The position numbers were made by a program, and so were the translations under genes. A stretch of DNA of 51,874 bases from a virus (lineage: Duplodnaviria > Caudoviricetes): positions 1-51,874 of the IMG/VR virus record IMGVR_UViG_3300032373_001207. The stretch is one strand, 5' to 3'. Positions within the stretch are counted from its first letter, which is position 1. Every line of letters starts with the position of its first letter. Positions 19,722 to 51,298 of this stretch are shown here, piece after piece. The notes under the pieces are model-generated. The model ran no database searches, was not told the origin of the DNA, and saw only the letters and a program-made list of their open reading frames with translations.

Positions 19722-21381
19722 CGTTCTGCCGCTAGAACGACTGGCGGCTATTCAGTTTTACGAAGACACGCTGGTCGATGCGGTAAAGCTTGATCAAAAA
19801 GCGGCCGAGGCTGAGGAAAGCACAGGGGAATACTCGTATCTGGAGCGCACACAGCGGCGGCTTTCCAGAAATGATCTATTTTACCTTCTGACGGTTTCCC
19901 TCAATCGGTCAGATATCAACGAAGACTGGCTCTTCGAGCGATGCCGAGAGGTTCAGGCAGACCCGAACGGGTGCTTGGACCTGTGGGCCCGAGAGCACTA
20001 CAAATCAACGATCATCACCTTTGGGCTCAGCATCCAGGACATCCTAGCCAGCCACGGTGATGACCCGGAGCCCAGATATGACGGCCGTGAAGTCACCATT
20101 GGTATCTTTAGCCACACCAAGGGCATTGCAACAGGCTTTCTGGACCAAATCAAAAACGAGTTCGAAACCAACACGGTCCTTCAAAAGCTGTTTCCAGACG
20201 TTCTGTATGAGCGGCCCAGAAGCCAGGCACCGTCATGGAGCAAGAGCGAAGGGATAACCGTTAAGCGGGCGTCAAACCCCAAGGAGTCAACGGTTGAGGC
20301 CTGGGGCCTCGTCGACGGGCAGCCAACTGGAAAGCACTTCTTCATCCTTAACTACGATGACGTGGTGACGGAAGAATCAGTCGGCACGCCGGATCAGATC
20401 GCCAAGACCACAAAATCATGGGAATTGTCCACCAACCTGGGCACGGAAGGTGGCTGGGACCGATACGTCGGCACCCGCTATCACCAATTCGACAGTTACC
20501 AAGAGATGATCGACCGCGGCTCGGTCAAGGTTCGGCTGCACCCTTGCACATTGGACGGGTCTGAAGACTTTTCGCCTGATAACTGTGCGTTAAGATCGCC
20601 TGAGTTTCTCATGAAACGCCGCAAGGATCAGGGTCCATACACCTTTGGGGCTCAAATGCTCTTGGACCCTACAGCGGACAGCGCTCAGGGCTTTAACGAA
20701 GACTGGCTCCAATATTGGCCTGCGGAACATGCGAAGGGCATGAACGTCTACATCCTTGTGGATCCGTCCAGTGGGCGAAAGATCAAAGAAGCTGGCGGCG
20801 GTGGAAGAACCGCAGCCGGACAGGAACAGAAGAACACGAACCTTGATTACACCGTCATGGAAGTCGTTGGGCTCGGCCCAGACGGGAATTACTACACCCT
20901 CGACCGTATACGGGACCGGTTGAGCCTCACAGAACGGGCAACAACGCTATTTCAGCTCCATCGGGACTGGAAACCTCTCAAGATCGGCTATCAACGTTAC
21001 GGGCTAGAAGCCGACATCGAGCACATTGAGCATCTGCAAAAAGAGCAGAACTACCGCTTCACCATAGAGCCAGTAGGCAGTCCGCTTTCTAAATCTGACC
21101 GTATCAAGCGCCTGATCCCAATTTACGAAGGGGGCAGGTGGTTTGAACCGGAAAGCATCATCCGCAATGACTGGGAAGGGAAGGCCGTCAATCTGACGAA
21201 GACCTTCATCCGCGAAGAGTACACGGCATTCCCAGTGTGCAAGCACGACGACGTCCTCGACTGCAAGGCCACCATCCTGGACTTACCTGATCTGGTATGG
21301 CCCAAGCCGCAGAACGAGGGCGACACAACGCCGGCATGGATGAAGCGCATGAAGAAAAAGCGGTCCTGGCAGGCCAGTTAA
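19708..21381 (+). CDS. terL: Terminase large subunit
   Basis: AREHYKSTI Walker A-like, YDDVV Walker B, VGTRYH, ILVDPS and HDDVLD nuclease motifs. Confidence 0.9.
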   Translation: MPVPNVLPLERLAAIQFYEDTLVDAVKLDQKAAEAEESTGEYSYLERTQRRLSRNDLFYLLTVSLNRSDINEDWLFERCREVQADPNGCLDLWAREHYKSTIITFGLSIQDILASHGDDPEPRYDGREVTIGIFSHTKGIATGFLDQIKNEFETNTVLQKLFPDVLYERPRSQAPSWSKSEGITVKRASNPKESTVEAWGLVDGQPTGKHFFILNYDDVVTEESVGTPDQIAKTTKSWELSTNLGTEGGWDRYVGTRYHQFDSYQEMIDRGSVKVRLHPCTLDGSEDFSPDNCALRSPEFLMKRRKDQGPYTFGAQMLLDPTADSAQGFNEDWLQYWPAEHAKGMNVYILVDPSSGRKIKEAGGGGRTAAGQEQKNTNLDYTVMEVVGLGPDGNYYTLDRIRDRLSLTERATTLFQLHRDWKPLKIGYQRYGLEADIEHIEHLQKEQNYRFTIEPVGSPLSKSDRIKRLIPIYEGGRWFEPESIIRNDWEGKAVNLTKTFIREEYTAFPVCKHDDVLDCKATILDLPDLVWPKPQNEGDTTPAWMKRMKKKRSWQAS

Positions 21382-21399
21382 AATCCGAGGAGCCCGTAC

Positions 21400-21714
21400 A
21401 TGGATACATCGACCGTTGTTGCAATCATCGGCCTCGCCACAACTCTCATGCTCGGCCAGTTCGCCATGTGGCGGTGGTTGGTCACGAAACTACGTGAAGA
21501 TCGCGCGGCCGCAGCGCAAAGCAGCAATGAGCTTCATAAACGCATCGACGACGTAAAAGACAATTACGTCAGACGTGACGATTTAATGCAGCACATATCA
21601 CGCATTGAATCAGGCCAGGCCCAACATTCGTCACTGCTTCAGGCTGGGCTAGAACGCATCAATGGGCGCATCGACTCCTTAGTGGGTACAGCAAGCACGG
21701 AAAAGGCGGGTTAA
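21400..21714 (+). CDS. Membrane-anchored coiled-coil protein (possible holin or lysis accessory)
   Basis: N-terminal TM helix; KRIDDVKDNYVRRDD. Confidence 0.6.
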   Translation: MDTSTVVAIIGLATTLMLGQFAMWRWLVTKLREDRAAAAQSSNELHKRIDDVKDNYVRRDDLMQHISRIESGQAQHSSLLQAGLERINGRIDSLVGTASTEKAG

Positions 21715-21717
21715 GCC

Positions 21718-23706
21718 ATGGTGTACGGTCCCCTCAGCGCTCGTAAGCCGCTACCTAAGCAGGACTGGAAAACCATCTTGTTGATGAGCGACCGCTTTGA
21801 GCGGGACGCCGCCGCACATTCAACGTGGGCAGAAGTGGCCAAGAGATGCACCGAGTACCTTGAAGGCAAGCAATGGACCGCAGATGCTCTGAAAGAGCTG
21901 GCAGACGATGGCAGGCCTGCACTGACCTTCAACAAGATCGCTCCTCTGGTCCGGGTCGTTATGGGCTACTTCTCGAATAACCGCACCGATGAAAAGTTCC
22001 TACCAGACCACGATGAAAGCTCTACCGCAGCTATAGCTCAGGCCCTAACCAAGACGTCCAAGCAGATGTCGGAAAGCAGCCAGCAGCCATACGTGGACAC
22101 AGAGGTGTTCTTGGATGGCCTTATCGGCGGCCGCGGCTATTACGACTGGCGCCTTGATTTTGAAGAGAACGAGCTGGGCGAAGCCAAATGCCAAGCCTTG
22201 GACCCGTTCTCAACCTATCTGGACTGTGACGGAGATCAATACGACATCAACAAATCGAGCCGGGTGACAACGAGCCGGTGGGGCTCAATCGAAGACCTGG
22301 AGGCTTTGTACGGTGCAGTCATCCGTAAGCTTGTCGAACCATTGGTCCTGGGCGGTGGATATGCTGGCATGCCGGCAGCCGTGTCCCAGTACATCAACGA
22401 AGAAATCACCCCATGGCGCACGTTCGGCGGTGATAGCGAAGATCAGAAGTTTGGGTATGGCAGTGCAGGGTCCTTTGAAGGGTTCATGCACAACCACATC
22501 GACCCGACCCGCAAGAACATCCGCATCATTGATCAGCAGCACTACAAGCGCGTGAAGACACGCATGGTCATCGACTTGGATACAGGCTTACAGAAGGCGC
22601 TTCCCGAGCACTGGAAGTACGAGAGGATCGAGAAGTTCTTGGAGTGGCAGGAAGCCAGGTTCGCATCCCTGGGCAAGGTCTCACCGATCCGTTACGACGA
22701 GCGCGTCATTCGCCGGGTACGTTGGACCACCCTGGTTGGTGACATCATCGTTCATGATGCTTGGTCACCGTATAAGACCTTTACCATTCAACCGTTCTTC
22801 CCGTATTTCCGCAGGGGCAAGACGCGGGGCATGGTCGAGGATCTACTTGATCCACAGCAGGAGATCAACAAGCGCCGCAGCTCTCAGATCGACATCATCT
22901 CACGCACCGCCAATGGTGGATGGCAAATCCACGAAGATGGCGTCAGCGAGGAAGAAATGGAGAACTGGGAGAACAATTCATCTTCCCCAGGCTTCATCGG
23001 AAAATGGAAAGGCGAAGCGCACAAGCAGCCAAAACAGATTGGCCCCGCTGGCTCGCCGGTCGATCATGAACGCCTAGAGATGAAGTCCACCGATGACCTG
23101 AAGGAAATCTCAGGCATCAACGATTCAATGCTAGGGCAGCTTGACCGGGTCCAGTCCGGCAAGGCTCTCATCGAGCGCCAACGTGGCGGTGTTCTCTCCA
23201 TCCAGCAATACATGACCAACATGAGCCGCACCAAGGAGCTGGTCGGTCGCAAGAAGCTTGAGTTGATCCAGAACCATTACACCGAACAGCGGTTGGTCCG
23301 CACCCTGGGTGAAGATGGTTCGCAGGACAGCCTGAAGATCAACGAGAAGTCATCCACCGGTGAAATTCTCAACAACGTCACCATCGGTAAGTATTCAATC
23401 AGCATCGACGAAACTCCGCTGTCGGCCTCATTCGTGTCGGCTCAGTTCGAGGAACTGATGGAACTGATCGAGAAGCAAGTCATCCCAGTCGAGGCCGTCA
23501 TGGACGTGGCGGTAGAGCTGTCCAGCATTCCACAAAAGGCCGTGGTCAAAGAACGTGTCCAGGCCTTCATGACTAATCAGGGCATTCCCACCGGTGATGA
23601 GATTATGACACCAGGTGCAGCCCCGGCAGCGCCAAGTCAAGAACTTGCTCCAGGCTTGGCTGATATGGGCAATGGCCAACAGGCTCCCAGCACTGGGCCA
23701 GCGTAA
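21718..23706 (+). CDS. Portal protein, P22-like
   Basis: GKQW...GRPALTFNKIAP; RGMVEDLLDPQQEINKRRS; SGKALIERQ. Confidence 0.9.
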   Translation: MVYGPLSARKPLPKQDWKTILLMSDRFERDAAAHSTWAEVAKRCTEYLEGKQWTADALKELADDGRPALTFNKIAPLVRVVMGYFSNNRTDEKFLPDHDESSTAAIAQALTKTSKQMSESSQQPYVDTEVFLDGLIGGRGYYDWRLDFEENELGEAKCQALDPFSTYLDCDGDQYDINKSSRVTTSRWGSIEDLEALYGAVIRKLVEPLVLGGGYAGMPAAVSQYINEEITPWRTFGGDSEDQKFGYGSAGSFEGFMHNHIDPTRKNIRIIDQQHYKRVKTRMVIDLDTGLQKALPEHWKYERIEKFLEWQEARFASLGKVSPIRYDERVIRRVRWTTLVGDIIVHDAWSPYKTFTIQPFFPYFRRGKTRGMVEDLLDPQQEINKRRSSQIDIISRTANGGWQIHEDGVSEEEMENWENNSSSPGFIGKWKGEAHKQPKQIGPAGSPVDHERLEMKSTDDLKEISGINDSMLGQLDRVQSGKALIERQRGGVLSIQQYMTNMSRTKELVGRKKLELIQNHYTEQRLVRTLGEDGSQDSLKINEKSSTGEILNNVTIGKYSISIDETPLSASFVSAQFEELMELIEKQVIPVEAVMDVAVELSSIPQKAVVKERVQAFMTNQGIPTGDEIMTPGAAPAAPSQELAPGLADMGNGQQAPSTGPA

Positions 23707-23726
23707 CAAGTAAAGGAAGACACCTC

Positions 23727-24275
23727 ATGGACCCCAAGGATGTTGCCCCCTCAATTATCCTGCCATCTGAATTCAATGAGACTGAAGACCGCATCTCAGG
23801 CGGAACGCACAAGCTCAAGGATGAATGGCTTTCGTCGCGCCTCGTGGCTTGGCTCTACGCAGAGTCCGGGGCTAAGTGCTGGGCGTGCATGCTGCTCAGC
23901 AGTGGCAAGTGGCATTACTGGGTGAAAGAAGCGGAGCAGGGCATAACACCGCCAAATTCACACAAGCGTGATTATGCCCGCAGCGTCGTTCGTTACCTCA
24001 ACAAGCACCTGCATTTTGATGGTGCCTGGGTTGGGGGCTGGATGGATGACGGCTGGAAGCGCTTCTATCTGGTGTGGAAGGACAAAGACGGAGATATCCA
24101 GTTCCCCATCGACACGGCCGGCGAAGTCCGCTGGAACGATCTGAAGGACTGGCCCATGGACGTATGGGGCAATCACGCCACCCAAGCTTTTGAGCAATGG
24201 TGTCACGCCATGGAAACCATCGGCGCCACCCCTGACCAGCAACTGAAATTGGCCCAAGGTCAAACCCGACACTGA
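23727..24275 (+). CDS. Hypothetical protein
   Basis: AAGGA RBS; long ORF in the late operon. Confidence 0.75.
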   Translation: MDPKDVAPSIILPSEFNETEDRISGGTHKLKDEWLSSRLVAWLYAESGAKCWACMLLSSGKWHYWVKEAEQGITPPNSHKRDYARSVVRYLNKHLHFDGAWVGGWMDDGWKRFYLVWKDKDGDIQFPIDTAGEVRWNDLKDWPMDVWGNHATQAFEQWCHAMETIGATPDQQLKLAQGQTRH

Positions 24276-24292
24276 AAAAGGCTCCCCCAGCC

Positions 24293-24469
24293 ATGATGCA
24301 ACACCCAGCCATTGAGCAAACCGTCAACCGAGCCATCGTACAAACCCTGATCGAGAAGACGACGCCTATAGATACCGTGAAACTCATGGGACCTATCCCC
24401 ATCGAAATTGCTCTCGGTGTTCTGTTTAACAGGCGTCATCTGATCATCCACAACGGAGAACAGTCATGA
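24293..24469 (+). CDS. 58-aa hypothetical protein (not in ORF track)
   Basis: MMQHPAIEQTV...GEQS; ATGA overlap with next gene. Confidence 0.45.
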   Translation: MMQHPAIEQTVNRAIVQTLIEKTTPIDTVKLMGPIPIEIALGVLFNRRHLIIHNGEQS

Positions 24470-24846
24470 ACCCCAGCATCACATCAGCCCTGATCCACAG
24501 CCCCAAGCACAAGAACGCAATCATTGTGGCCCTGGCTCAGATTGCCGACACCGACATCACCGGTGCTGCCACCGTCGTTAAACGCAAATGCGAAGAGCTC
24601 CGCATTGCAGACTTCCCGAACCCGTTTCCTCATGGGTCGGATGATCGGGCTGAATGGGACTCTGTATGGCACCCAGCCGAAGCTGAAGACCCTGCGTTCG
24701 AGCTCATCGACTATGACGCCATGAGCAAAAATGAAATCGCTCAGCTCGTGAAAAAGCGCATGAACGTCAATATTGCCACATGGAGCACCAAGCCCGCGGT
24801 CATCGCGCGTGCCAAGAGCCTGCTCAGTCAGGCTGCGCAACAGTAA
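24466..24846 (+). CDS. Hypothetical protein
   Basis: GGAG RBS; followed by terminator. Confidence 0.75.
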   Translation: MNPSITSALIHSPKHKNAIIVALAQIADTDITGAATVVKRKCEELRIADFPNPFPHGSDDRAEWDSVWHPAEAEDPAFELIDYDAMSKNEIAQLVKKRMNVNIATWSTKPAVIARAKSLLSQAAQQ

Positions 24847-24889
24847 ACCAAGTTTTCACAGGTCCGCCTTAACGGGCGGAACGTGATTG

Positions 24890-24914
24890 AGGCTGCTTTC
24901 GAGCGGCCTTTTTT
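24890..24914 (+). terminator. Intrinsic terminator
   Basis: AGGCTGCT-TTCG-AGCGGCCT-TTTTT. Confidence 0.8.
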
Positions 24915-25114
24915 GTTGGCCACGGTTCATGCCCGAGGTCAGCGCCCCAGTCGACGTGGGTAATCGGTCGTATCGGACGCTCTGACCGTATCAGGGCAAC
25001 CCCGGGGCCGGGGGTTAAGACCGTGGCCATTCGGCTCTTGTGACCGCATTCATAAGCACCGTCGCCGGGTGTCCCGGGCGTCTCGCCAGCTACCAAGCGA
25101 AGAGGTAGATACCA

Positions 25115-26200
25115 ATGACCGTTAAAGACGAAACTCAGCAGGACAAAAACCAAGAACCGCAGCCGGAACAGGTTGAGGAAGCGTTTACGACACCCGAAGA
25201 CGACGCCCATGAAGAGGCAGTACGTGAGCTTGAAGAAGCCGAGCGTGCGGCTGAAGAAGGGGACGACGACGGGGCCGCAGACAAAGCCGAAACCAAAGAG
25301 TTTGAGCAGGTGGCAGACGAAGCCGCAGGCGATGACAAAGCCGCAGGCGGGGAAGACCTCGATAAACCCGATGATGAAAAGGGTAAGACCGTCCCCCTGG
25401 CTGTTCTGAAGAAAGAACGCAAGGAACGCCAAACCCGGGAACGTGATCTTGAACTGCGTCTCGCACGTACGGAAGGACAGCTCGAAGCTACAAAGAGCAA
25501 TCCAACTGACACAGGTGAGCCGGAAGCCCCGCAGCAATCGGTGGAAGAGCAAATCGCGGACTTGAACGCCAAGGCAGACGAAGCCGCGGCACAGGTGGAT
25601 GAAGGCGAACTTACATTCGCTCAAGCCAACAAAATAGTCCGTGAAACCAATGAGCAAATTCAAACCCTCAAAGACCGCTCAGCTCAGCAGGCCCAGGATA
25701 GCCAACCAGCAACCTTGGACGTGCGTATCGAGGAAAACCTAGTCGAACTGGAAGGAAAGTATCCCGTCATTAAGACGCTCGGTGACGAGCAAATGGCGGA
25801 CTTTGTGAACCAGGCGTACCAGCAAGCCGAAGAGGAGGGTGAACCCATCCGAACCGGTGCCCTGGAAACCATGCGTCTTCACAACATGGCGGCTAAAGCT
25901 GCCCATGATCATTACGCCCAGTTCTACAAAACCGACCAACCGGTCACCCCGTCCTCTGAACAACCGTCTCCAGATGGTCAACCGTTGGGGAAAGAAGGCC
26001 TAAGCCCACAAGCGAAGGCGCGTGCCGACAAGATAGATCTTGCGGCCAATCACCCCCCCGACATCAACCAAATCGGCTCGTCTGCCGAAGGGACACTCAA
26101 CGACACGCAAATCCTCGCAAAGATGGAAGGTCTGAGCGAAGAAGAGCGTATCGAGTTCCTGGACAGCATGCCGGGTCTGGCTCAACGCCTCGGCGGTTAA
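25115..26200 (+). CDS. Capsid scaffolding protein
   Basis: Acidic coiled coil, TVPLAVLKKERKERQ; directly before the capsid gene. Confidence 0.8.
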   Translation: MTVKDETQQDKNQEPQPEQVEEAFTTPEDDAHEEAVRELEEAERAAEEGDDDGAADKAETKEFEQVADEAAGDDKAAGGEDLDKPDDEKGKTVPLAVLKKERKERQTRERDLELRLARTEGQLEATKSNPTDTGEPEAPQQSVEEQIADLNAKADEAAAQVDEGELTFAQANKIVRETNEQIQTLKDRSAQQAQDSQPATLDVRIEENLVELEGKYPVIKTLGDEQMADFVNQAYQQAEEEGEPIRTGALETMRLHNMAAKAAHDHYAQFYKTDQPVTPSSEQPSPDGQPLGKEGLSPQAKARADKIDLAANHPPDINQIGSSAEGTLNDTQILAKMEGLSEEERIEFLDSMPGLAQRLGG

Positions 26201-26236
26201 TCCTAATCGCCGGGACCCGTACAGGAGACACCAGAA

Positions 26237-27352
26237 ATGGCTGTAACTGATTTCGGCGCACTCTCTGACTTGCAGCGTACTGTGCAAGCCACGAGCGTAG
26301 CCAAGCAAGGACGTGACGAAAACTTCTTCATGTCCAATGCGTTCCTCGGCAAAAACACTGCCGATATGAACCGTCCTCTAATCCGTGTCACGGAGCTCAC
26401 CAAAGACGCCCGCGGCACCAAGGCAGTATTGCCATTGACCACCGACTTGACCGGTGGTGGCGTTGTTGGTGACAACATCTTGGAAGGTAACGAAGAAGCT
26501 CTCGTAGCTGACGCGCAGACCATCCAGATTGACCAACTGCGCAACGGCGTGCGCTCCAAGGGTAAAATGGCTGAGCAGGAAACGGTCATCCGCTTCCGTG
26601 CCACAGCAAAAGACGCCTTGGGCTTCTGGTTGGCTGACACCATCGACGAGCTGATGTTCCTGACCATCGCCGGTCGGGCCTATTCGCTCAACACCGATGG
26701 CTCGGCTCGTGATGCCAGCTCGCAGCTTCCACAACTGGGCTTCGCGTCCGATGTGGTCGCCGCGTCCACCAACCGTGTCATGTATGCCGGTGCTGCAACG
26801 TCTGAAGCGACTTTGACGGCCACCGACACCATGACCTGGGACTTGGTCACGGATATGAAGACGCACGCTAAGCGTAAGCGTATTCGTCCCATCCGCGCCG
26901 GTGGCAAGACGTACTACATCCTGGTTCTCAGCACCGAGCAGTGCCGCGATCTGGAAAAGACGTCGGACTACAAGACGTTGACCGCACAGGCTATGCCACG
27001 CGGCCTCAACAACCCGCTGTTCACCAACGCCAAGAAGGTGGTGAACGATGTTGTCATCTACGATCACCAGAAGGTCTACAACACCTTGGGCCTCGCTTCT
27101 GGCTCCAAGTGGGGCGCTTCTGGCACCGTCGATGGCGCGCAAGCATTCCTCATGGGTGCATGTGCCGCGGGCGCCGCAATGCTCGGCAACGTCGAGTGGG
27201 CGGAATCGGATAGCACCGATTACAAGAACCGTCCGGCTATTGGTACGGGTCGTATCATCGGCATGCTCAAACCGCAGTACAAGTCACGGTACGACGGCAA
27301 CACCACCGAAGATTACGGTTGTGTTTCGCTGAAGACCGCGGCCGCTGCTTAA
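26237..27352 (+). CDS. Major capsid protein (N4-gp56/DUF4043-like)
   Basis: GGGVVGDNILEGNEEAL...IQIDQLRNGV; NNPLF; AGGAG RBS. Confidence 0.88.
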   Translation: MAVTDFGALSDLQRTVQATSVAKQGRDENFFMSNAFLGKNTADMNRPLIRVTELTKDARGTKAVLPLTTDLTGGGVVGDNILEGNEEALVADAQTIQIDQLRNGVRSKGKMAEQETVIRFRATAKDALGFWLADTIDELMFLTIAGRAYSLNTDGSARDASSQLPQLGFASDVVAASTNRVMYAGAATSEATLTATDTMTWDLVTDMKTHAKRKRIRPIRAGGKTYYILVLSTEQCRDLEKTSDYKTLTAQAMPRGLNNPLFTNAKKVVNDVVIYDHQKVYNTLGLASGSKWGASGTVDGAQAFLMGACAAGAAMLGNVEWAESDSTDYKNRPAIGTGRIIGMLKPQYKSRYDGNTTEDYGCVSLKTAAAA

Positions 27353-40736: not shown

Positions 40737-40991
40737 TTACTTCTTCAGCCGGACTCCAGGCCCTTCTCCGTTCTCGTCGATGAAAATCACCCCGGCTGTT
40801 TCAAGGGCGGTGATTATACGGCTAATGTTTTCATATGTGCCACGTAGCGGCCCTTCGCCACCTTCCAACCTCTTTACTGTTGGGATAGAAATATCTGCCG
40901 CTGTTGCCAAGGTATTTTGGTCCCATTTAATCATAGCTCGTGCAGCTCGAAGCTGTGCGGAAGTGATCTGTGCGGACATTTTTTGATCCAT
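40737..40991 (-). CDS. XRE-family HTH regulator
   Basis: ITSAQLRAARAMIKWDQNTLA...TVKRLE...LETAGVIFIDENGEGPGVRL. Confidence 0.92.
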   Translation of the reverse strand: MDQKMSAQITSAQLRAARAMIKWDQNTLATAADISIPTVKRLEGGEGPLRGTYENISRIITALETAGVIFIDENGEGPGVRLKK

Positions 40992-41077: not shown

Positions 41078-41284
41078 ATGGCAATGCAAGATAGGATCAT
41101 GGGGCACGTCGAAAATATCGTTCAGGTGGATTTCAGAGAGCCGCCTAAAGCCTGGAACCTTCGGGAGGTTGTCAGAAAACGCGGCATACCTAGAGGGCAG
41201 GGCGTTAACCGTCCTGATGTTGTTACATCAATCCGTCGACTTTCTAACGACAACGCCCCCATGCGAGAATTTATCAAAGGCTAA
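41078..41284 (+). CDS. Small protein, paralogue of 49849..50046
   Basis: AAGGAG RBS; NIVQVDFRE.PKAWNLR..VRKRGIPRGQGVNRPDVVTSI. Confidence 0.75.
   Translation: MAMQDRIMGHVENIVQVDFREPPKAWNLREVVRKRGIPRGQGVNRPDVVTSIRRLSNDNAPMREFIKG
41114..41234 (+). repeat. 121-bp direct repeat, copy 1 (copy 2 at 49876-49996)
   Basis: 13 differences in 121 nt by manual alignment. Confidence 0.92.
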
Positions 41285-41736: not shown

Positions 41737-44700
41737 ATGGCCGACCAACCCTTAAAGCTTGTTTCTGATGCGGAGTTCTTTGGTGAGCCCCAGCAACAAG
41801 AGATCACAAAGCCAACAGGGTTTCTCTCCGATGAAGAGTTTTTTGGTGAAAGGGTTAGTCCTAGCGGTCCAGTAGAACAAGACTCCAGCTTTACAGGCAG
41901 CGTGGCGCGTGGCGTCGATCTAGCCCAGGGCATGGGATACAGCTTCATTGAGGCCAGCGGCGAAGCAATGGGCTCTGATACCCTGAAGGATTTCGGCAAA
42001 GAGGGCCGCGAGCGCAACATGGTCGAGATGGGGCAGAACCCCCGTACCCAGAATTTCAAAGACATTGGAAGCTTTGGGGACGCTGTTGATTGGGCCAAAG
42101 AAACGGCTGGCGAACAGGCCGCCATGATGGCCCCGAGCATGGCGGGCGGTATTGGTGGTGCGGCCCTTGGCGCAGCAACCCCAATTCCCGGTGGTGCTGT
42201 AATCGGCGGCATCATCGGTGCCGTTGTGCCGTCATTTATCCTTGGCACTGGCGAAACCCAGATGGCCATTAAAGAAAAAGACCCCAATGCAGAAGCTCCG
42301 GGTATGGCATTTCTTGGTGGTTCGGCTATTGCGGCCCTTGATTCCGTGCTGCCGGGTAAACTTGGCTCGTATGTGGTTAAGGCCTATGGCAGGGAAACGG
42401 CTGAAGCAATTGTCCGGGAAGCCCTCAAAAAGCGTCTGGTCAAAGAAATCCCCAAGGGCATGGCGCTTGAAGGCGTTACCGAAGCCGTACAGGAAGCCAT
42501 CAGCGAGGCCGCTGCGGCGCATGGTACAGGGCAAGAGATTGACTGGAGTGGCCTACAAGACCAGATGATCGAGGCCGGAGCGGCAGGTGCCCTTATGGGC
42601 GGCGGTGCAACCGGTGCAACCGAGGTGGGCACTGCGATTATGCAGGGAAACCAAGCACCCACAGAACAAGACTTAGAAGACCAGATCAACGCTGAACGCG
42701 CCAAGAATATCGACGAGGGCGTGCGCGTTCTCAGCGGTGAAGAGGTGCAGGCTGCTCCGGACGTTTCTCCTCCGTTGAGTACGGCACAGCCCCTGGAGGA
42801 CGGGTTGCCCAACTCCGCGCCTCTAGGGGCAACCATGCCCGAGGGAACTGGCGAGCGCCACGCCCCCGTGAAGGCCGAGGTCCCCGTCGATGTGGACCTT
42901 GCCGCCACCCAAGCCAATACCGCCCCCTCTGACGCCCAGAAGGAAGCCGGGAACTACAAGAAGGGCCACGTAAAGGTACAAGGCCTGGACATCGCCATCG
43001 AAAACCCCAAGGGTTCCGTGCGTTCTGGTTCCGACGAAGACGGGAAAGCTTGGGAAACGGTCATGCGTTCCCATTACGGCTACATCAAAACGGCTGAAGG
43101 TGCGGATGGCGATAAGGTCGACGTGTTCATCAACACCGCCACCAATGGCATTGGCGAAACCGCTTTTGTTGTGGACCAGGTGGTGGGTGGCCAGTTCGAT
43201 GAGCATAAGGTGGTTCTGGGGGCCGAGAGCATTGCGGATGCCAAAGCTATCTACAGTGAGAACTATGCACCTGACTGGGATGGTATTGGTGCCGTCACCC
43301 CCATGCACATGGATGACTTCAAGACCTGGCTGAAGGATGGCAACACCAAGAAGCCCGTCGCATGGACCGCGCCGCTCGATGACCAACTCCCCGCCGATAT
43401 GCAGCCGGTTTCACGTGAAACAAATCAAGAACAAACGCCAGCCTTCAACGTTGATGCGCACTATGGCGCCGCCGTTGCCTTTGCTAAGGCCCAGGGCAAG
43501 AAGTTGACCCCATTGTTCCTGTCCAAGGCCCTTGGTGTGACCGGCAAAGAGGCTCGTGCCTTGTTGGACATCCTGGCCGCCCGTGGCGTCATTCGCAAAT
43601 CTAAGGACAAAGGCACCTATAGCCGCATTCCGGTGCGCAAGGGGCCTGTGGACGTGCTGACGTATATTGCTGACCGTGGTGGCCTGCGTGACGATGAGGG
43701 GCATGACCTGAAGAAGGGACGGGGCGGACAGCGCTTTATCCCCGGTGTTGGTCCCCTAATCCGCTCCAGTGGCCACGGTGTGGACGCTTTGGGCGAAATG
43801 CTCCATGAGGACGGTTACTTCGGCCCCTTGGACACGACGCCGCGCCCGACCGAGGCCCAGGTCCTGGAAGTGCTCGACCGCGCCCTGAGTGGCGAAAAGG
43901 TCTACATCCCCGAAGAAGCCCATCTCCCCGGCGAGACCCGCGCGGCAGAAGAAAGCAAGGCCGGCGAGGCTGAGGTGCGCACCCGCGTGTCCGAGCTTGA
44001 GCTGGACCTGAATGATGGCGAAGTCTCGTATGTTGCGGGCTGGGTTGGTCAGGGCATGTCCCTGGATGACGCCATCGCTGCCACCATCGAGCAGCGCACC
44101 GGGAAGTGGGCAGAAGCCCAAAACCCCACATTTGAAGACGAAGTGATCGACATTCCGTGGGATGAAATCATGCTCACGGAACCTGCTGACTTAGAGGCGG
44201 GAATCCGCTATACTGCCCCCAGGGTTGCGGAGCAGAGCTTCGATGCCCCATTTGCAAAGGTGACGAACGATGAACCGCGAACAGCGCCTCAAGATGGCCA
44301 GCCAGACCAGGACCGCCCTGGAGAAGCACGGGCACAAGATCGACCCGAAGGATCAGGCCGAGGGGCTGAGGCACGCCCGGAACCTGGAGAAACTGGCCGA
44401 GCACCTGCCGGACAAGAAAACCCAGGCTTAGCCACCGCTCAAACCGATCAAGCCCCCGCCGATACCGCGGGGGTTTCTGATTCTGTGTCAAAGACACCAA
44501 AGACGACACATGAACTCAATGCAGCTCGTGACCGCGTCTATCGCCCAGACAAGAAGCTTTATGGGTATTCAAGTGTAGACCTCTCAACCAATTACACCAT
44601 GGAAGAGCTCAACCAATTGAGACTTTCTGTAGAGACTGACCCCGCAAATCAGGAAGACACAGGGCTGTATCTATACACAAAACCAGCACGCTCAAAGTTG

Positions 44701-47700
44701 GACAAAATTGCTTGGGCCGTGCGCTACAAAATGGAAGAAAAGCGTAAGGCCGCTAAAGCTACCACCGAGACCGTCACCAACGTGGCTGGCGCGACCGAGC
44801 AGGGCGTTATCCCCGGTGCTGAGAAGATCAGCGACAAGGAACTGGCCGAGCGCAAGATGGCCGAGAAGAAGAAGTCCGATGTCACGCAGAAGGATGCTGG
44901 TTCGGATGGCGGCCTCTTCGACACCGGCGCGCGCGATCAGGGCGACTTGCTGGATGTCGCAGCCAAACCCGTTGTTTCTCATAAAACGGAAAATATTGAC
45001 GACAAACCCAAGGCCAAGAATCCGAACGGCACCGACTTGCTGGGCGATAAGGCCAAAATCACCGACAAGGGTGTGGAGATGTATGCCGCTGCCATGCCGA
45101 GGGGGGCTGCATACACCCAGTTGGTTGCCGACCAGAACCATTTTTCGAGTGAAGTAGATGACGCACTTGCGGGAAAGCGTAAGGGCTCTCGCGCTTTTCT
45201 TACCGTCGGGGAAACACCCCTGATCCTTAATCGTCTTGGCGTTAAACGCAAAAAACTGATGATGCGGGCCTCAAAGCCGCAGGAGATTTTGGACACCCAC
45301 GACGGCATGACCATCGACCTGATCAAACGGGCGCCGACCCTGATAAGCGATCCGGTTATGGTCATGAAGTCAGGCAGCCGTGGCAATCCCCATGCGTTGG
45401 TTGCCGTGCTGAATGAAGTGGATGCAAACGGTGAATTGCTGGTGGCCGTGGTGACGCCAGCCACTGGGCGGGTGCAGGTGGATACTTTCAGTAGCGCATA
45501 TGGAAAGACCACCAATCCGCAAAGGTTCATTGATGACGCGGTGGCGCAAAAAAGAGTGCGGTATTACAACGAAGAAATGGCGCTTAACCACCCCGGCATC
45601 ACTGGGGTCCAATTCCCCAGGTGGGGGGCGGTTAAGCGCCACATTCCAAATGTACTCTCACACGACGATTTCGTCAAGGCACGCGCGCAAAAGCCCGATG
45701 TTTACAGTGTTCTTGGTGAGTATTCGTGGAAGGATTCTGTGGACCGCAAGAAGCTGGTTGAGCAGATTATTGCCATTCATAAACGCATCGCACCGAAGAC
45801 GGACATCGAAGTCGTTGAACAACTCTTTGGCAATATAGAGGGTCGGGGCCTCGAAGAGGTTGGCGGCGTCTACAGTCCGGGGAAAAACCTTGTTCGTGTT
45901 GCGGTCGATTTTGGCAATGCCGAGGCGCTTGTTCGTCATGAGGACATCCATGCCCTGCGCGATATGGGGATGTTCACCAAAACCGAATGGAACATTTTGT
46001 CGCAAAAGGCCAGAAGGCAGTGGATCGAAGATTACAAAATTGATGTTCGGTACCCTAAGCACTCGAAGGAGAAGGCTGCCGAAGAGGCTATTGGTGATGC
46101 GTTCGCAGATTACATGACCGGAGATGCACGGTTTTCGCCCGTTATTCGCCGTATCTTCGACAAGATCAAACAATTCTTTGAACGCCTGGGGAACCTTCTG
46201 AACGGGCAGGGCTATCAGAGCGTTGAAGACATATTCGACCGCGTTGAGCGCGGTGACGTCGGAAAGCGGCAGGCCAACCATGATACGGATGCAACAAGTT
46301 CAATTGACGACCTGTATAGCGTTGACGAAGACCCTATCTCAGAGCTGGCATCGTCCAAAGACTTCGCCGAGCGCGCGGCAGAGACCCTGCAAACCCCGGA
46401 GCAGAAGCAAGGGGCGCTGAAGACTGCCCTGGATGGGGTGAGGGATTTCGTTACATCACCGGCCATCCCCCATGCCAAGGACTTGAACTGGTTCCAGAAG
46501 GCCATGGTCCACCCCCGCATGATCGCGGAGATGTTCCCAAAATTCACGCCGGTATGGTTAGCGGCCGAGAAGCAGTTCAAGCGCCGGGACACCATCAACG
46601 CCGAACTGACCAGCATCATGGAGCCTTACCACGCCCTGGAGCTCGACAGCAAAGCGCGTGTGCATGCGGTGCTGGAGCTTGGGCGTTTGCAAGGAGAAGT
46701 TATCGACAGCAAAAACGTGGGCCTCACCAACACGTGGGGCGATACGGATATGTCGAAGCTGGGCGAACGGATCAACCTGACCGAAGACGAGTCCAAGGCC
46801 TATCACGCCGTGCGCAAGACCATGGATAGGGTTCTCCAGCTTTACACGAAGCAGGTGCTTAACGAATGGGGATATGACCAGAAGGACAGCCCCAAGACGT
46901 CCGCAGAACTAGAGGCCCTATCCAAGGAGCTTTATGAAAAGGCCAAAGATGCTGAGAGCCATGAAGAGGCTAAGGACCTAAACCGCGAAGGCGACACAGC
47001 TAAGGAAGCCGCCAAGATCATCGGCGAAATTGAGGCCGCAAAGGCAACGGGATATGTGCCATTCAGTCGTTTTGGAGACGTTGGTATAACGGTGCGCGAC
47101 AAGGGTAATTCTGTGGTGCATTTCGAGAAGATCGAAGTGGGCGGAGCCGTTGGCCGTCTGGTCAACCGCAAGAAGGTCCAGGATGTGCGCCGTCGCTTAA
47201 TGGAGCAATACCCTAAATCCAAAGGCTACGCTGTTGGGAACGCGCAACAGATGACCAACGCCGCCGACATGGCAGCGGCAGGCCTCAAGATCGGAGACAT
47301 TGATGCGCTGGCGGATATCGCAGGCATTGAAGATTCAGAGTGGGCCGGAACGCGGGAGAAGCTGAACAAAGCCACCATGAAGGCTGGCTTTCGTAAGCAC
47401 TTCATTGGTTCCAAAAAAACAGCAGGGTACTCCACGGATTTTGAGCGCTCTCTTGCGGATTCAATTACCAGCGTCAGTTCCTATCTTGCGCGCCGCGAAG
47501 TGCGTGAAGAGATGGAGCAGGCGCAGGCGCAGCTCGCTTCACCTCAGAACAAACAAACGAACCTTTATGAGTATGCCAAAACCTATGGAGACTACGTTCA
47601 GTCCCCTGGTGAGAGTTTGCAGTGGTTCCGGAGTTTGAATTTTTTCTATTATCTGTCGGGAAATGTCAGCAGCGCCGTGGTCAACCTGACACAGGTGGGG

Positions 47701-49188
47701 CTGGCGACCGCTCCATACTTGACGCAGTTTACATCGGCTCGGCGCGTTTCTATGGAACTGGCCCGTGCCTATAAGGACGTCGGCAAAATGGCTTGGCGCA
47801 AGCCGAACATGGATGGTGGCGCGATGGAATTCTTCGATCCATCCAAGGCACCGGCAGACGTAAAAGAAGATCTGCAAAGAGCTTGGGATGACGGCACCCT
47901 GGTTCCGTTGGTGACATTGGAGCAAATGGGCGTGGCGCACGGCCGGGAGAAATTCCGTCGCGGCATTGGCAAAGGATCTCAGGCCGCCGTGGAGTTTGCT
48001 GGATCGCTGTTCACCGGTGCAGAACGGGCCAACAGGCTGGTGACCTTCATCGCCGCCCACCGGCTTGCTCGGCAGAAGGGTTTCATGTTCAAGGTGAACG
48101 AGGTGCTGAAGGATAATGGCCTATGGCAGCACCAGGCCAAGGATATGAACCCAGGGAACTTCGCCGAGTGGGCAATCGACGAAACACATTTTGTAATGGG
48201 AAAACGTAACCGGCCGACACTATTTCGCGGTGTCGGTACGGCGGTCTTTCAGTTCAGGGGCTTCTCCGTTCAATACTTGGAGCTGATGTGGCGCATGGCC
48301 AGTCAGAACGGGGCGGAGGGCAAGCGGGCGTTTGCCATGCTCTTGGGTGGGCTGGTCGCGTCCGCTGGCGTGTGGGGGCTGCCGTTTGGAGATGACCTGA
48401 AGGACGTGATTGAGCAGCTTTATGCCTTCGCCACAGATCGAGAAATCGACTTAGAAGCCGAACTGCGCGAAGCGATCTATGACACAAGTGGGTCTGCGCT
48501 CCTGGCCGAGGCCGTTAACCGCGGCCCAATGCGCATGGTGGGTGCCGATATGTCTCATCGCATTGGTATGGGGTCCGTCCTGCCGATGAACACCTTCATG
48601 GGGCTTATGGGGGTCCAAACACGTCAAGGTGGCGAGGTCATGGGGGTTGGCTGGGATATGACGGTCGGGCGCGTTAAGCGGATCGTCGATCATTTGAAGA
48701 ACGATCAACTGGCAATGGCAGGATCAGAGGCCTTGCCGGCCTTCGCTAAAAACCCTGTGCAATCCATCTTGTGGAGCACGGACGGGGTTCGGTCGCGCGG
48801 GACGGGACGGGCGCAAATTCCGGAAAATAAAATCACCGATATGGACGTGGCGCTGAAGTGGTTTGGGTTTACGCCGGTTCATATCACGAGGGAACGCGAA
48901 GTCGAGTGGGCTAAAATCCGCTCCACCAGAGCGGTAACAAACCTACAGGCGCGCTTTTACACGAAGATGGTCCGGTCGATTGTCGAGGGTGATAAAGACG
49001 GCGTGGCGGCGCTCTTTGCTGAAATAAAGGACTACAACGCGGACAAGCCGTTTCATAAGCAGATACGTCTCAGTCGAACATACCTCAATCGACTTGTTCG
49101 CCTAGAAGTGAGTGGATACGAGGGCCGAAAGCTGCCGAGAAAGGCCCGTCCGCATGGGGCAAAGCTTGATCAGGTGTACCCGAATTGA
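41737..49188 (+). CDS. Large polyvalent virion/ejection protein (inorganic pyrophosphatase-like, MuF-C/PBECR-like, HExxH metallopeptidase-like, PLxRFG-like regions)
   Basis: GNYKKGHV...ENPKGSVRSG...HYGYI...GADGDKVDVF; ISDPVMVMKS...SAYGK; VRHEDIHAL; YVPFSRFG. Confidence 0.85.
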   Translation: MADQPLKLVSDAEFFGEPQQQEITKPTGFLSDEEFFGERVSPSGPVEQDSSFTGSVARGVDLAQGMGYSFIEASGEAMGSDTLKDFGKEGRERNMVEMGQNPRTQNFKDIGSFGDAVDWAKETAGEQAAMMAPSMAGGIGGAALGAATPIPGGAVIGGIIGAVVPSFILGTGETQMAIKEKDPNAEAPGMAFLGGSAIAALDSVLPGKLGSYVVKAYGRETAEAIVREALKKRLVKEIPKGMALEGVTEAVQEAISEAAAAHGTGQEIDWSGLQDQMIEAGAAGALMGGGATGATEVGTAIMQGNQAPTEQDLEDQINAERAKNIDEGVRVLSGEEVQAAPDVSPPLSTAQPLEDGLPNSAPLGATMPEGTGERHAPVKAEVPVDVDLAATQANTAPSDAQKEAGNYKKGHVKVQGLDIAIENPKGSVRSGSDEDGKAWETVMRSHYGYIKTAEGADGDKVDVFINTATNGIGETAFVVDQVVGGQFDEHKVVLGAESIADAKAIYSENYAPDWDGIGAVTPMHMDDFKTWLKDGNTKKPVAWTAPLDDQLPADMQPVSRETNQEQTPAFNVDAHYGAAVAFAKAQGKKLTPLFLSKALGVTGKEARALLDILAARGVIRKSKDKGTYSRIPVRKGPVDVLTYIADRGGLRDDEGHDLKKGRGGQRFIPGVGPLIRSSGHGVDALGEMLHEDGYFGPLDTTPRPTEAQVLEVLDRALSGEKVYIPEEAHLPGETRAAEESKAGEAEVRTRVSELELDLNDGEVSYVAGWVGQGMSLDDAIAATIEQRTGKWAEAQNPTFEDEVIDIPWDEIMLTEPADLEAGIRYTAPRVAEQSFDAPFAKVTNDEPRTAPQDGQPDQDRPGEARAQDRPEGSGRGAEARPEPGETGRAPAGQENPGLATAQTDQAPADTAGVSDSVSKTPKTTHELNAARDRVYRPDKKLYGYSSVDLSTNYTMEELNQLRLSVETDPANQEDTGLYLYTKPARSKLDKIAWAVRYKMEEKRKAAKATTETVTNVAGATEQGVIPGAEKISDKELAERKMAEKKKSDVTQKDAGSDGGLFDTGARDQGDLLDVAAKPVVSHKTENIDDKPKAKNPNGTDLLGDKAKITDKGVEMYAAAMPRGAAYTQLVADQNHFSSEVDDALAGKRKGSRAFLTVGETPLILNRLGVKRKKLMMRASKPQEILDTHDGMTIDLIKRAPTLISDPVMVMKSGSRGNPHALVAVLNEVDANGELLVAVVTPATGRVQVDTFSSAYGKTTNPQRFIDDAVAQKRVRYYNEEMALNHPGITGVQFPRWGAVKRHIPNVLSHDDFVKARAQKPDVYSVLGEYSWKDSVDRKKLVEQIIAIHKRIAPKTDIEVVEQLFGNIEGRGLEEVGGVYSPGKNLVRVAVDFGNAEALVRHEDIHALRDMGMFTKTEWNILSQKARRQWIEDYKIDVRYPKHSKEKAAEEAIGDAFADYMTGDARFSPVIRRIFDKIKQFFERLGNLLNGQGYQSVEDIFDRVERGDVGKRQANHDTDATSSIDDLYSVDEDPISELASSKDFAERAAETLQTPEQKQGALKTALDGVRDFVTSPAIPHAKDLNWFQKAMVHPRMIAEMFPKFTPVWLAAEKQFKRRDTINAELTSIMEPYHALELDSKARVHAVLELGRLQGEVIDSKNVGLTNTWGDTDMSKLGERINLTEDESKAYHAVRKTMDRVLQLYTKQVLNEWGYDQKDSPKTSAELEALSKELYEKAKDAESHEEAKDLNREGDTAKEAAKIIGEIEAAKATGYVPFSRFGDVGITVRDKGNSVVHFEKIEVGGAVGRLVNRKKVQDVRRRLMEQYPKSKGYAVGNAQQMTNAADMAAAGLKIGDIDALADIAGIEDSEWAGTREKLNKATMKAGFRKHFIGSKKTAGYSTDFERSLADSITSVSSYLARREVREEMEQAQAQLASPQNKQTNLYEYAKTYGDYVQSPGESLQWFRSLNFFYYLSGNVSSAVVNLTQVGLATAPYLTQFTSARRVSMELARAYKDVGKMAWRKPNMDGGAMEFFDPSKAPADVKEDLQRAWDDGTLVPLVTLEQMGVAHGREKFRRGIGKGSQAAVEFAGSLFTGAERANRLVTFIAAHRLARQKGFMFKVNEVLKDNGLWQHQAKDMNPGNFAEWAIDETHFVMGKRNRPTLFRGVGTAVFQFRGFSVQYLELMWRMASQNGAEGKRAFAMLLGGLVASAGVWGLPFGDDLKDVIEQLYAFATDREIDLEAELREAIYDTSGSALLAEAVNRGPMRMVGADMSHRIGMGSVLPMNTFMGLMGVQTRQGGEVMGVGWDMTVGRVKRIVDHLKNDQLAMAGSEALPAFAKNPVQSILWSTDGVRSRGTGRAQIPENKITDMDVALKWFGFTPVHITREREVEWAKIRSTRAVTNLQARFYTKMVRSIVEGDKDGVAALFAEIKDYNADKPFHKQIRLSRTYLNRLVRLEVSGYEGRKLPRKARPHGAKLDQVYPN
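44186..44214 (+). promoter_or_regulatory. Internal sigma70-type promoter for the nested ORF
   Basis: CTGACT-17-TATACT. Confidence 0.55.
44270..44431 (+). CDS. Nested 53-aa ORF in the +1 frame of the giant gene (not in ORF track)
   Basis: AAGGTG RBS; MNREQRLKMASQTRTALEKHGHKIDPKDQAEGLRHARNLEKLAEHLPDKKTQA; promoter upstream and hairpin downstream. Confidence 0.6.
   Translation: MNREQRLKMASQTRTALEKHGHKIDPKDQAEGLRHARNLEKLAEHLPDKKTQA
44450..44478 (+). terminator. Terminator-like hairpin after the nested ORF
   Basis: AAGCCCCCGC-7nt-GCGGGGGTTT; weak U tract. Confidence 0.5.
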
Positions 49189-49245: not shown

Positions 49246-49602
49246 ATGATGAATTGCAGATCAATAGGGGCCGTAGTTTTGGTGGTGATGGTTTTGTTTC
49301 CAGCAACCGCAAGCACTACTGAGTGGGACTATGGGAGCACAGGAAGGCTGGCTCAGGCATGCACTCGTTCCAATGATGTTTGGGCTGGATATTGCAGAGG
49401 TATGATAATTGGCGTTGCATCAATTATGTCAGCCAATGCTCAAGTTGAGCCTCGTCCGCCATATTTTGCGTGCGTTGGAAATGACGATGTATCAGAGATA
49501 ATAAATAAGTTTGTTTCGTGGTCTAAGGATGGGCAGAAAGATTTATCGGAAGACGCACCGATAGGGCTTATTCGGTTCCTCAGGGCCACGTATCCTTGTT
49601 AA
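49246..49602 (+). CDS. Rap1a/Tai-like secreted immunity protein
   Basis: Signal peptide; TGRLAQAC...YCRGMIIGV...C...LRATYPC cysteine pattern. Confidence 0.78.
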   Translation: MMNCRSIGAVVLVVMVLFPATASTTEWDYGSTGRLAQACTRSNDVWAGYCRGMIIGVASIMSANAQVEPRPPYFACVGNDDVSEIINKFVSWSKDGQKDLSEDAPIGLIRFLRATYPC

Positions 49603-49604
49603 TT

Positions 49605-49745
49605 TTATTTACTTTTTTCAACGTGTTGGACCAAGATGCGTTCGATGTAATTGGCTAGCGTGCGGCCATCTTTCTCCGCCAACTGTTCAAGCTTTTCTTT
49701 GAGTTCCGGTTCAACTCGGATTCCAATTGCCGCAGATCGGGCCAT
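49605..49745 (-). CDS. 46-aa ribbon-helix-helix (Arc/CopG-like) regulator (not in ORF track)
   Basis: GGAG RBS; MARSAAIGIRVEPELKEKLEQLAEKDGRTLANYIERILVQHVEKSK. Confidence 0.88.
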   Translation of the reverse strand: MARSAAIGIRVEPELKEKLEQLAEKDGRTLANYIERILVQHVEKSK

Positions 49746-49848: not shown

Positions 49849-50046
49849 ATGCGCACCTATAAAAGTACGGACTCAAACATCGTCCAGGTGGATTTCAGAG
49901 AGAAGCCCAAAGCCTGGAATCTTCGGGACGAAGTCAGAAAGCGCGGCATACCTAGAGGGCAGGGCGTTAACCGTCCTGACGTGGTTACCTCAATCCTCAG
50001 GGGTGTGAACGAAAACGCACTTGTCCGTGGGGTGACCCATGGCTAA
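49849..50046 (+). CDS. Small protein, paralogue of 41078..41284
   Basis: GGAG RBS before MRTYKS; overlaps the RAMP start by 8 nt. Confidence 0.75.
   Translation: MRTYKSTDSNIVQVDFREKPKAWNLRDEVRKRGIPRGQGVNRPDVVTSILRGVNENALVRGVTHG
49876..49996 (+). repeat. 121-bp direct repeat, copy 2
   Basis: Matches 41114-41234. Confidence 0.92.
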
Positions 50047-50635
50047 GGCCGCAACGGAAAAGGTCGACCTACCAGCCCTGAACATCCAGGGCTTTGAATT
50101 GACGCTGGTCGGGGATAGCCCCCTGATTTGCCATGCTTGGTCGAAGAAGGCCAAAGAGATGATGCTGGCGAAGCAGATGAAAAAACCCGCAACCGCAAAG
50201 GTGGCGAAGGACCCGGAGCAGGATTACCAAGACAGCCTCTATCCGCACCCTGAGGGCGGCTACGGTTTTCCCGCAGTGGCGTTTAAATCAGCAGCAGTCA
50301 GTGCCTGTCGGGCGCTCGATAAAAGCATCACCATGGTCCAGGCGCGCGGCGCGTTCCACGTTATAGGTGAGTTGGTGAAAATCGACGGCGATCCGCGGCC
50401 CCGCGAAGATATGGTGCGGATTGGCATGGGCACCGCAGATATCAGGTTCCGGGGAGAGTTTCCAGTTTGGAATACCACATTCTTGGTGCGCTACAACGCT
50501 AACGTTCTAACGGCCGAGCAAATTATAAATCTGTTCAACCACGCCGGATTCCACGTCGGCGTGGGCGAGAACAGGCCCGAAAAGTCCGGCAACGGCTTTG
50601 GCATGTTCCACGTCGCTATTGAAGGGGAGGCGTGA
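50039..50635 (+). CDS. Stand-alone RAMP/Cas7-like RNA-binding protein
   Basis: LTLVGDSPLICH (like Csm3 beta1/SPLHIG), GFPAVAFKSAAVSA (like IPGSSLKGALRS), C-terminal Gly-rich loop GVGENRPEKSGNGFGMF. Confidence 0.75.
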   Translation: MAKAATEKVDLPALNIQGFELTLVGDSPLICHAWSKKAKEMMLAKQMKKPATAKVAKDPEQDYQDSLYPHPEGGYGFPAVAFKSAAVSACRALDKSITMVQARGAFHVIGELVKIDGDPRPREDMVRIGMGTADIRFRGEFPVWNTTFLVRYNANVLTAEQIINLFNHAGFHVGVGENRPEKSGNGFGMFHVAIEGEA

Positions 50636-51123
50636 TCATGACGGATAAAATCTATTCCTGGAAAGATGGCGCCATCATCAAGGCAGATGCCCAGAAGGTT
50701 GGCGAACGCCTTGAGTGGCTGGAAAAACGCCACAATGGGCTGTTATCCGCAGAAGCGGTATTAAACGACGCCAAGAAAAAAACGTCACCCTTGAACAAAG
50801 CGTTCGAGTGGGATGACACGGAAGCCGCACAGCAATATCGCTTGGAGCAGGCGCGGGCCTTGATGCGGATGATCACGGTGGAAATCCGACAGGTTAAGAC
50901 CAAGACACATAAGCCGGTCAGGGCCTACGTGAATGTACGGCGTGCAGACGACAAGGGATACGCGCCGGTCGCTCAAGTCATGAATGACACCGAATTGCGG
51001 GAGCAAGTCCTGCAGCGGGCATGGCGTGAACTGCAAAACTGGCGGGACCGCTACCGCGAATACGAAGAACTGATTGAGATATTCACCGCCATCGAGCAAA
51101 CGGCGGACAAGATCAGCGCTTAA
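50632..51123 (+). CDS. Partner protein of the RAMP gene, function unknown
   Basis: GTGA overlap with RAMP stop; SPLNKAFEWDDTEAAQQYRLEQAR. Confidence 0.8.
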   Translation: MIMTDKIYSWKDGAIIKADAQKVGERLEWLEKRHNGLLSAEAVLNDAKKKTSPLNKAFEWDDTEAAQQYRLEQARALMRMITVEIRQVKTKTHKPVRAYVNVRRADDKGYAPVAQVMNDTELREQVLQRAWRELQNWRDRYREYEELIEIFTAIEQTADKISA

Positions 51124-51136
51124 GGATTGGGTTACG

Positions 51137-51278
51137 CCGAGAGTTCCTTACAACCTCGGGGCCGGAAACGGCAGCAAGGCAGGCGAGGCAAGGTGAGGTA
51201 TGGCGAGGTCTGTCGAGGAGCGGCGAGGCCTGGCAAGTCGAGGCTAACAGGGGCAGTTCTTCGGAGCTGCCCTTTTTT
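51137..51278 (+). ncRNA. Putative guide RNA with 12 GGY-NN pentamers, two 5' hairpins and a 3' terminator
   Basis: From 51182: GGCGA GGCAA GGTGA GGTAT GGCGA GGTCT GTCGA GGAGC GGCGA GGCCT GGCAA GTCGA GGC; hairpins 51137-51159 and GCCG-GAAA-CGGC 51161-51172; 5' end uncertain. Confidence 0.75.
51249..51278 (+). terminator. Intrinsic terminator
   Basis: AGGGGCAGTTC-TTCG-GAGCTGCCCTT-TTTT. Confidence 0.88.
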
Positions 51279-51298
51279 ATTGAAGATGGAGCGGCAAG

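Follow-up and report, generated by a model that had tools for sequence, protein, structure and literature searches.

Reciprocal VIPR guide matches between a phage and a related provirus suggest silencing of a shared virion-protein gene

Introduction

In the VIPR systems described to date, a target is read with a skip of one base in alignment with the wobble position of codons, either strand may be targeted, and silencing is achieved by binding (10.64898/2026.04.26.720920); the structural basis is treated in a separate study (10.64898/2026.04.26.720927). Such a system, which operates without a PAM, raises the question of how a phage spares itself when its guide is directed at a gene present in its own genome. 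The locus analysed here poses this question directly. In a phage sequence of 51,874 nucleotides (i.e., the whole stretch, referred to as the window), the best match of a predicted guide RNA is found in a giant gene of the phage itself. A first-pass annotation had attributed this near match to a guide directed at the homologous gene of a competing relative, read without regard to third codon positions, with self-targeting avoided through mismatches.

Results

The window carries a VIPR system

The locus is composed of two overlapping open reading frames followed by a pentamer tract and then a lysozyme gene. The first frame, vipr (50039..50635, plus strand), encodes a 198-residue protein with a RAMP/Cas7-like fold. 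A profile built from 120 homologues of this ORF (A4) returned a single match in the PDB, the Vipr protein of Escherichia phage SUSP1 (36pp_D, E 9.4e-8), with an alignment that covers the thumb residue R138 and the G-loop residue R179; SUSP1 was not reached by a single-sequence tblastn search with the window Vipr. The predicted model (pLDDT 88) has chains of type III and type VII CRISPR effector complexes as its top Foldseek matches. In SUSP1 the G-loop reads D177-W178-R179, where the tryptophan stacks on G2, while residues 177-179 of the window protein (50568-50576) read E-N-R. Position 178 is a tryptophan in 112 of the 120 homologues and an asparagine in five, which include the window Vipr and its three closest relatives.

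The second frame, a candidate vap accessory gene (50632..51123, plus strand, 163 amino acids), overlaps the vipr stop codon and belongs to phrog_15946, a group of uncharacterised function. It has no relative in the PDB and falls in no named family in family and profile searches, and the locus is therefore assigned to VIPR without a type. Divergent from the vipr operon lies a small ribbon-helix-helix repressor gene (49605..49745, minus strand; RHH_1, 22.9 bits against a cutoff of 20.5), the product of which could regulate the operon. A class 1 CRISPR-Cas system was considered and rejected, as no CRISPR-like array or repeat family is listed for the window and no cas family was found in the 37 ORFs scanned. 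A search of the window against Rfam gave nothing at gathering score.

In the viral collection, the Vipr protein most similar to that of the window (83% identical) is encoded by a locus (L001) in a provirus, referred to as G001, where the gene order is the same as in the window, i.e., giant gene, vipr, vap and one guide; the candidate vap is syntenic there and 74% identical. The possibility that G001 is a satellite was rejected on the basis of its own capsid, portal, terminase and integrase genes, which identify it as an autonomous provirus.

The guide and its flanking elements

The predicted vrRNA guide (51182..51246, plus strand) consists of 13 GGY-NN pentamers, 10 of which have an exact GGY head; the NN series begins at 51185 with 3-base spacers throughout (12/12). 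Units 1-12 are treated here as the guide. The 13th unit (TA), which had been omitted from the series in the first-pass annotation, matches neither the self site nor the G001 site described below. By analogy with SUSP1, the tract would be expressed as a vrRNA and bound by Vipr. Pentamer tracts are also present in other Vipr loci, among the matches listed of 49 loci.

Between vap and the array lies a conserved leader (51124..51181, plus strand) that ends at its 3' side in a GGCAG/G overlap, the same junction by which arrays are linked in other Vipr loci. The stretch 51124-51184 is identical to L001:11092-11152 at 57 of 61 bases, compared with about 75% for the locus around it, and a 22-base piece of it was found in just one further contig of the viral collection. 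The predicted fold of the leader is no better than that of shuffled sequences (z 0.27) and a comparison with known RNAs gave no Rfam match of note; a role as promoter or processing signal is conceivable. On the 3' side of the tract, a terminator scan identified a hairpin followed by a T run (51249..51279, plus strand, z -5.4), resembling an intrinsic terminator, and in L001 the stem is kept by an A-T to G-C swap. This hairpin may be a structured tail of the guide RNA or just a terminator; the SUSP1 RNA, in contrast, has a recognisable pseudoknot tail. Scaffold, leader and hairpin are thus kept between the window and G001, while the NN letters of the two guides differ at 12 of 13 units.

In several other loci (L003, L013, L039, L046, L047 and others) the vrRNA arrays are long and staggered, with units that overlap by one base at GGCAG/G; certain Vipr loci among the matches listed carry at least 10 guides.

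The target gene encodes a giant polyvalent protein

The gene in which the match is found (41737..49188, plus strand) encodes a giant polyvalent protein of 2483 amino acids. The protein combines InPase and MuF-C with a PLxRFG domain in its C-terminal part (residues 1772-2455), and it is in this last domain that both target sites discussed below are located. Its relatives are F116-like. They vary widely in length and in their N-terminal domains but have the C-terminal part in common, such that the PLxRFG domain is a sensible aim for a guide directed at relatives. Phage polyvalent proteins, as described in PMC5512222, together with the NCBIfam PLxRFG domain family NF032893, resemble the window protein in being giant and multidomain, in combining InPase with MuF-C and in being encoded near head and tail genes. 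These proteins are predicted in the same text to be packaged and injected (PMC5512222), and by analogy the window protein is probably packaged in the virion; the polyvalent protein is here the target and not the silencing system. Adjoining the giant gene on its 3' side is a gene for a Rap1a-like immunity protein (49246-49602; 27.3 bits, cutoff 27.7).

The self-match alone is borderline

With a skip of one base, the window guide matches its own genome at 48436..48471 on the plus strand (site A) in 19 of 24 bases and nine of 12 dinucleotides, or 19 of 26 bases if unit 13 is included. The site is in frame, covering residues 2234-2245 (DREIDLEAELRE) of the 2483-residue ORF, every skip falls on the third position of a codon, and units 2, 6 and 11 contain the mismatches; the NN series and the alignment as first reported were reproduced in each of these respects. 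No other site in the window scores as high as site A, the runner-up reaching 17/24.

How unusual this score is depends on the null model. When the order of the guide dinucleotides was shuffled, at least 19 bases were matched somewhere in the window in 338 of 5000 cases and at least nine dinucleotides in 31 of 5000. Shuffling codons within the 33 ORFs gave 77/1500 and 10/1500, respectively, and shuffling the guide bases 3/1500 and 0/1500. Among 83 real guides of other Vipr loci (arrays of at least 11 units from L002-L049, with the last unit dropped, cut to 12 units and duplicates merged), two reach 79% or more somewhere in the window. The originally proposed chance estimate of 0.004 agrees with some of these nulls and is an underestimate under others. 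Taken alone, the self-match is thus borderline, i.e., suggestive but not decisive: the shuffled-guide and codon-shuffle checks that had been proposed for it yield the site A score in 0.2-7% of shuffles, depending on the null. TTA, the codon at unit 6, accounts for one of the 48 leucine codons in the C-terminal 594 codons and for 7/171 across the gene; being a single observation, its rarity is given little weight here, i.e., it carries little weight as an argument for escape.

Each guide has its better match in the other phage

G001 was found through Vipr similarity and its choice is therefore independent of any guide match. On the orthologous site in G001 (L001:8350-8385), the window guide scores 21/24, compared with 19/24 on self; the site reads DKEIDLESELRE, with a lysine at unit 2. 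A homologue with a better match and this lysine had both been predicted from the window. The lysine predicted at unit 11 is not borne out: the unit specifies lysine or asparagine, but among 109 homologues, 102 have an arginine and none has either of the two. The predicted indifference to third positions is correct, but it is already the published VIPR rule (10.64898/2026.04.26.720920).

In the opposite direction, the G001 guide matches the window at 47631..47666 on the minus strand (site B; residues 1966-1977), wobble-aligned, with 20 of 24 bases and 10 of 12 units, compared with 18/24 on its own copy. The margin between self and non-self is thus two bases in each case. Sites A and B are separated by about 800 bases and lie within the same PLxRFG domain, one on each strand. 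Both cross-matches are wobble-aligned one-base-skip matches at or above the 80% used for VIPR targets, while the self site, at 79%, is below this cut-off.

Across the whole genome, the score of the window guide on G001 was equalled in 1/2000 order shuffles and 0/1500 base shuffles, and that of the G001 guide on the window in 0/2000 order, 1/1500 base and 0/1500 codon shuffles. None of the 83 control guides reached 83% on either the window or G001. Other skip lengths were rejected, as they score lower than a skip of one; with skips of 0, 2 or 3 the cross comparisons gave at most 17/24. The two scores at site A (self and G001) are correlated, the sites being homologous. Between the window and G001, 20 of the 24 read bases at site A are the same, compared with just three of the 12 skipped bases. 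When homologous proteins were scored, none of 197 fitted the window guide at site A in more than 10 of 12 units, and at site B the window protein was the best fit to the G001 guide among 196 (11/12). These statements refer to the two guides of the clade that were read, i.e., those of the window and G001.

The acidic composition of the window guide offers a simple alternative, namely that a guide rich in Asp/Glu codons happens to match an acidic helix and that the relative scores well through homology alone; the 5-7% of order or codon shuffles that reach 19/24 in the window, and unrelated viral proteins that reach 21-22 of 24, agree with it. The G001 guide, however, has no GA unit, such that the objection fails for it. 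This guide nevertheless lands within the same domain of 1.8 kb, in wobble phase and on the opposite strand, with a score reached by 0-1 of 1500-2000 shuffles under three nulls. Chance, largely refuted by this reciprocal guide, is very improbable.

Perfect targets and further relatives

The perfect target that had been expected in a competing relative was not found in three collections: the exact 24-position pattern has no match in viral, metagenome or genome contigs, and neither units 1-10 of the window guide nor units 1-11 of the G001 guide have a match in viral contigs. A relaxed 20-position pattern, which was picked after G001 had been seen and serves as a background count only, retrieved four viral stretches, two of which belong to unrelated acidic proteins that score 22 and 21 of 24. 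A score of 21/24 therefore has little weight at database scale; its weight here comes from its position, which is orthologous to site A in a relative that was selected independently.

Alignment searches for Vipr relatives identified four viral, at least 15 metagenome and three genome loci. Among the matches listed, three loci are the G001 element (G002, which matches G001 at 100% identity, is counted with it as one element), and the others are at most 43% identical, with no guide array detected. None of nine candidates from a single-sequence viral search for clade members was confirmed, and a search with shorter fragments gave six proteins, none of them close. Two proteins (P0101 and P0014) encoded on one 12.2-kb contig likely represent a third relative.

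The two elements occur in one sequencing run

In a run labelled microbial mat metagenome (X1), from which the records analysed here may derive, contigs with 0 differences were found both to the window element, at a depth of about 21, and to L001:7000-11146, at a depth of about 227. This is co-occurrence within one run, not evidence of a shared host. The same run holds low-depth contigs of 535 and 719 bases (depth 5-6; records 3 and 4) in which the giant gene of at least one additional relative is represented and which probably span both target sites. In a second run (X2) the window element was present as short pieces only, and this run was left out of the comparison.

Matches in G001 were found by tblastn for 11 of 33 window ORFs, which do not include terminase, portal or capsid. 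A comparison of window positions 19275-27352 with G001 by the same method describes a mosaic pair with common replication genes, giant-gene C-terminus and VIPR, and unmatched head genes.

Discussion

Aim of the guide and sparing of self

The combined data indicate that the window guide is quite probably aimed at relatives' copies of the giant virion-protein gene. Judged from the sequences, the two phages would likely silence each other's copy of this common gene, and the flagged self-match would be a by-product of shared ancestry. Because neither cross-match is perfect, the guides were probably written against the clade rather than against exactly these two genomes. Extrapolating from SUSP1, Vipr subunits would coat the RNA, one per pentamer, holding GGY and presenting the NN pairs, and the complex would bind double-stranded DNA with every third base skipped. 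Transcription could then be blocked inside the late gene of the rival, the particles of which would lose an injected protein.

The distribution of mismatches bears on how self might be spared. Those of the window guide that are specific to self are confined to units 2 and 6, both in the 5' half. Unit 11 mismatches both phages, and unit 12 of the G001 guide likewise fits neither. The unit 11 mismatch, originally taken as one of the means of self-avoidance, cannot serve as such because it is common to G001, in line with the arginine found in most homologues. Self-sparing can be proposed only tentatively, because the 3' half of the guide fits the self site slightly better than the rival site (units 7-12, 10/12 and 9/12, respectively).

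A more far-reaching interpretation, which we put forward tentatively, is that two temperate phages residing together attack each other with RNA guides over a single essential gene that they have in common. Each would write a guide against the allele of the other and protect itself by a few changes that are visible to the wobble-blind code, including synonymous swaps between codon families. Such swaps are seen from Leu CTN to TTA at the window's own site and from Ser AGY to TCG at the site in the rival. If this interpretation is true, VIPR would discriminate between kin with no need of a PAM, and self would differ from non-self by as little as two or three bases.

Other explanations of the matches

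A reading that is less probable, and yet close to the preferred one, is that the guides target a third element, i.e., a further relative or a satellite that carries this ejection-type gene, and that the mutual and self matches are echoes of homology. It overlaps with the aim at relatives' copies because the mechanism is the same and differs only in the intended victim. The imperfect cross-matches would suit it, as would the additional giant-gene relative (at least one) in X1 and the precedent that SUSP1 guides aim at a satellite with structural genes common to the phage (10.64898/2026.04.26.720920). Against it, no better homologue emerged: the scored proteins stop at 10/12 at site A, and the best fit at site B is that of the window. 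Nor was a satellite-like carrier apparent among the fetched loci.

Self-regulation is improbable. Here the guide would also, or mainly, bind the phage's own late virion gene and dampen it, e.g., in a lysogen. The self score lies barely below the published 80% cut-off, units 7-10 and 12 are perfect on self, and the structures, as described in 10.64898/2026.04.26.720927, resolve engagement first at the 3' units; moreover, the best self-site of both phages falls in the giant gene. Yet both guides fit the other phage better, and the two phages use different sites, which a conserved autoregulation would not need. Furthermore, in the clades examined in 10.64898/2026.04.26.720920 no self-target reaches 80%.

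Relation to known systems

The closest known counterparts of the locus are the type II reference loci of VIPR in Escherichia phage SUSP1 and in a prophage of Pseudomonas fulva (10.64898/2026.04.26.720920), with which it has in common a RAMP-fold vipr with one accessory gene, a GGY/NN pentamer RNA in the range of 9-16 units and the one-base wobble skip, and the window and G001 as a pair also resemble them in having targets on either strand in competing phages. Unlike in these reference loci, there is a single guide in the window, closed by the terminator-like hairpin, and its target is a gene that its owner also carries. In the conflicts of the SUSP1 family, relatives are likewise targeted, self scores are below non-self scores and the targets are conserved, wobble-aligned coding sequences, according to 10.64898/2026.10.15.759431. 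The lower self scores are reported there for guides that target vrRNAs. In that text, the self-sparing guides are directed at the vrRNAs of rivals and others at vipr or at satellites; here, the target is a virion gene.

VIPR, its code and its use between phages are already known, and the locus adds an unusually clean reciprocal pair for the study of self/non-self discrimination. The VIPR literature, in the portions consulted, which include passages of 10.64898/2026.10.21.760802, describes no autonomous VIPR phages that reciprocally aim at a common virion gene, although such cases may be contained in figures, in the target lists of data S3 or in supplementary tables on bioRxiv. Similarly, no mismatch tolerance of VIPR is given in the portions of the VIPR texts that were searched. 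The pair constitutes a natural 2 x 2 test, in which two guides each have a self and a rival site that are two matched bases apart. It could set the mismatch threshold of VIPR and reveal whether synonymous swaps at the first codon position are an escape route.

Possible regulatory cassettes and more distant homologues

A direct repeat of 122 bases, 89% identical between its copies, is found at 41113-41234 and 49875-49996, where it lies at the core of two small ORFs (41078-41284 and 49849-50046). Each of these ORFs faces a small divergent repressor gene, of the HTH type at 40737-40991 and the RHH gene at 49605-49745, and one repeat cassette precedes the ParB-like and giant genes while the other precedes vipr. 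In G001, the gene ahead of vipr is apparently of the HTH type. These arrangements suggest that the repressor/repeat units are swappable regulatory cassettes.

Vipr homologues of at most 45% identity, annotated as hypothetical, are also present in the phage collection (hits H31-H66), where they are carried by 29 Mycobacterium and five Gordonia phage records, one cyanophage and one Pseudomonas phage.
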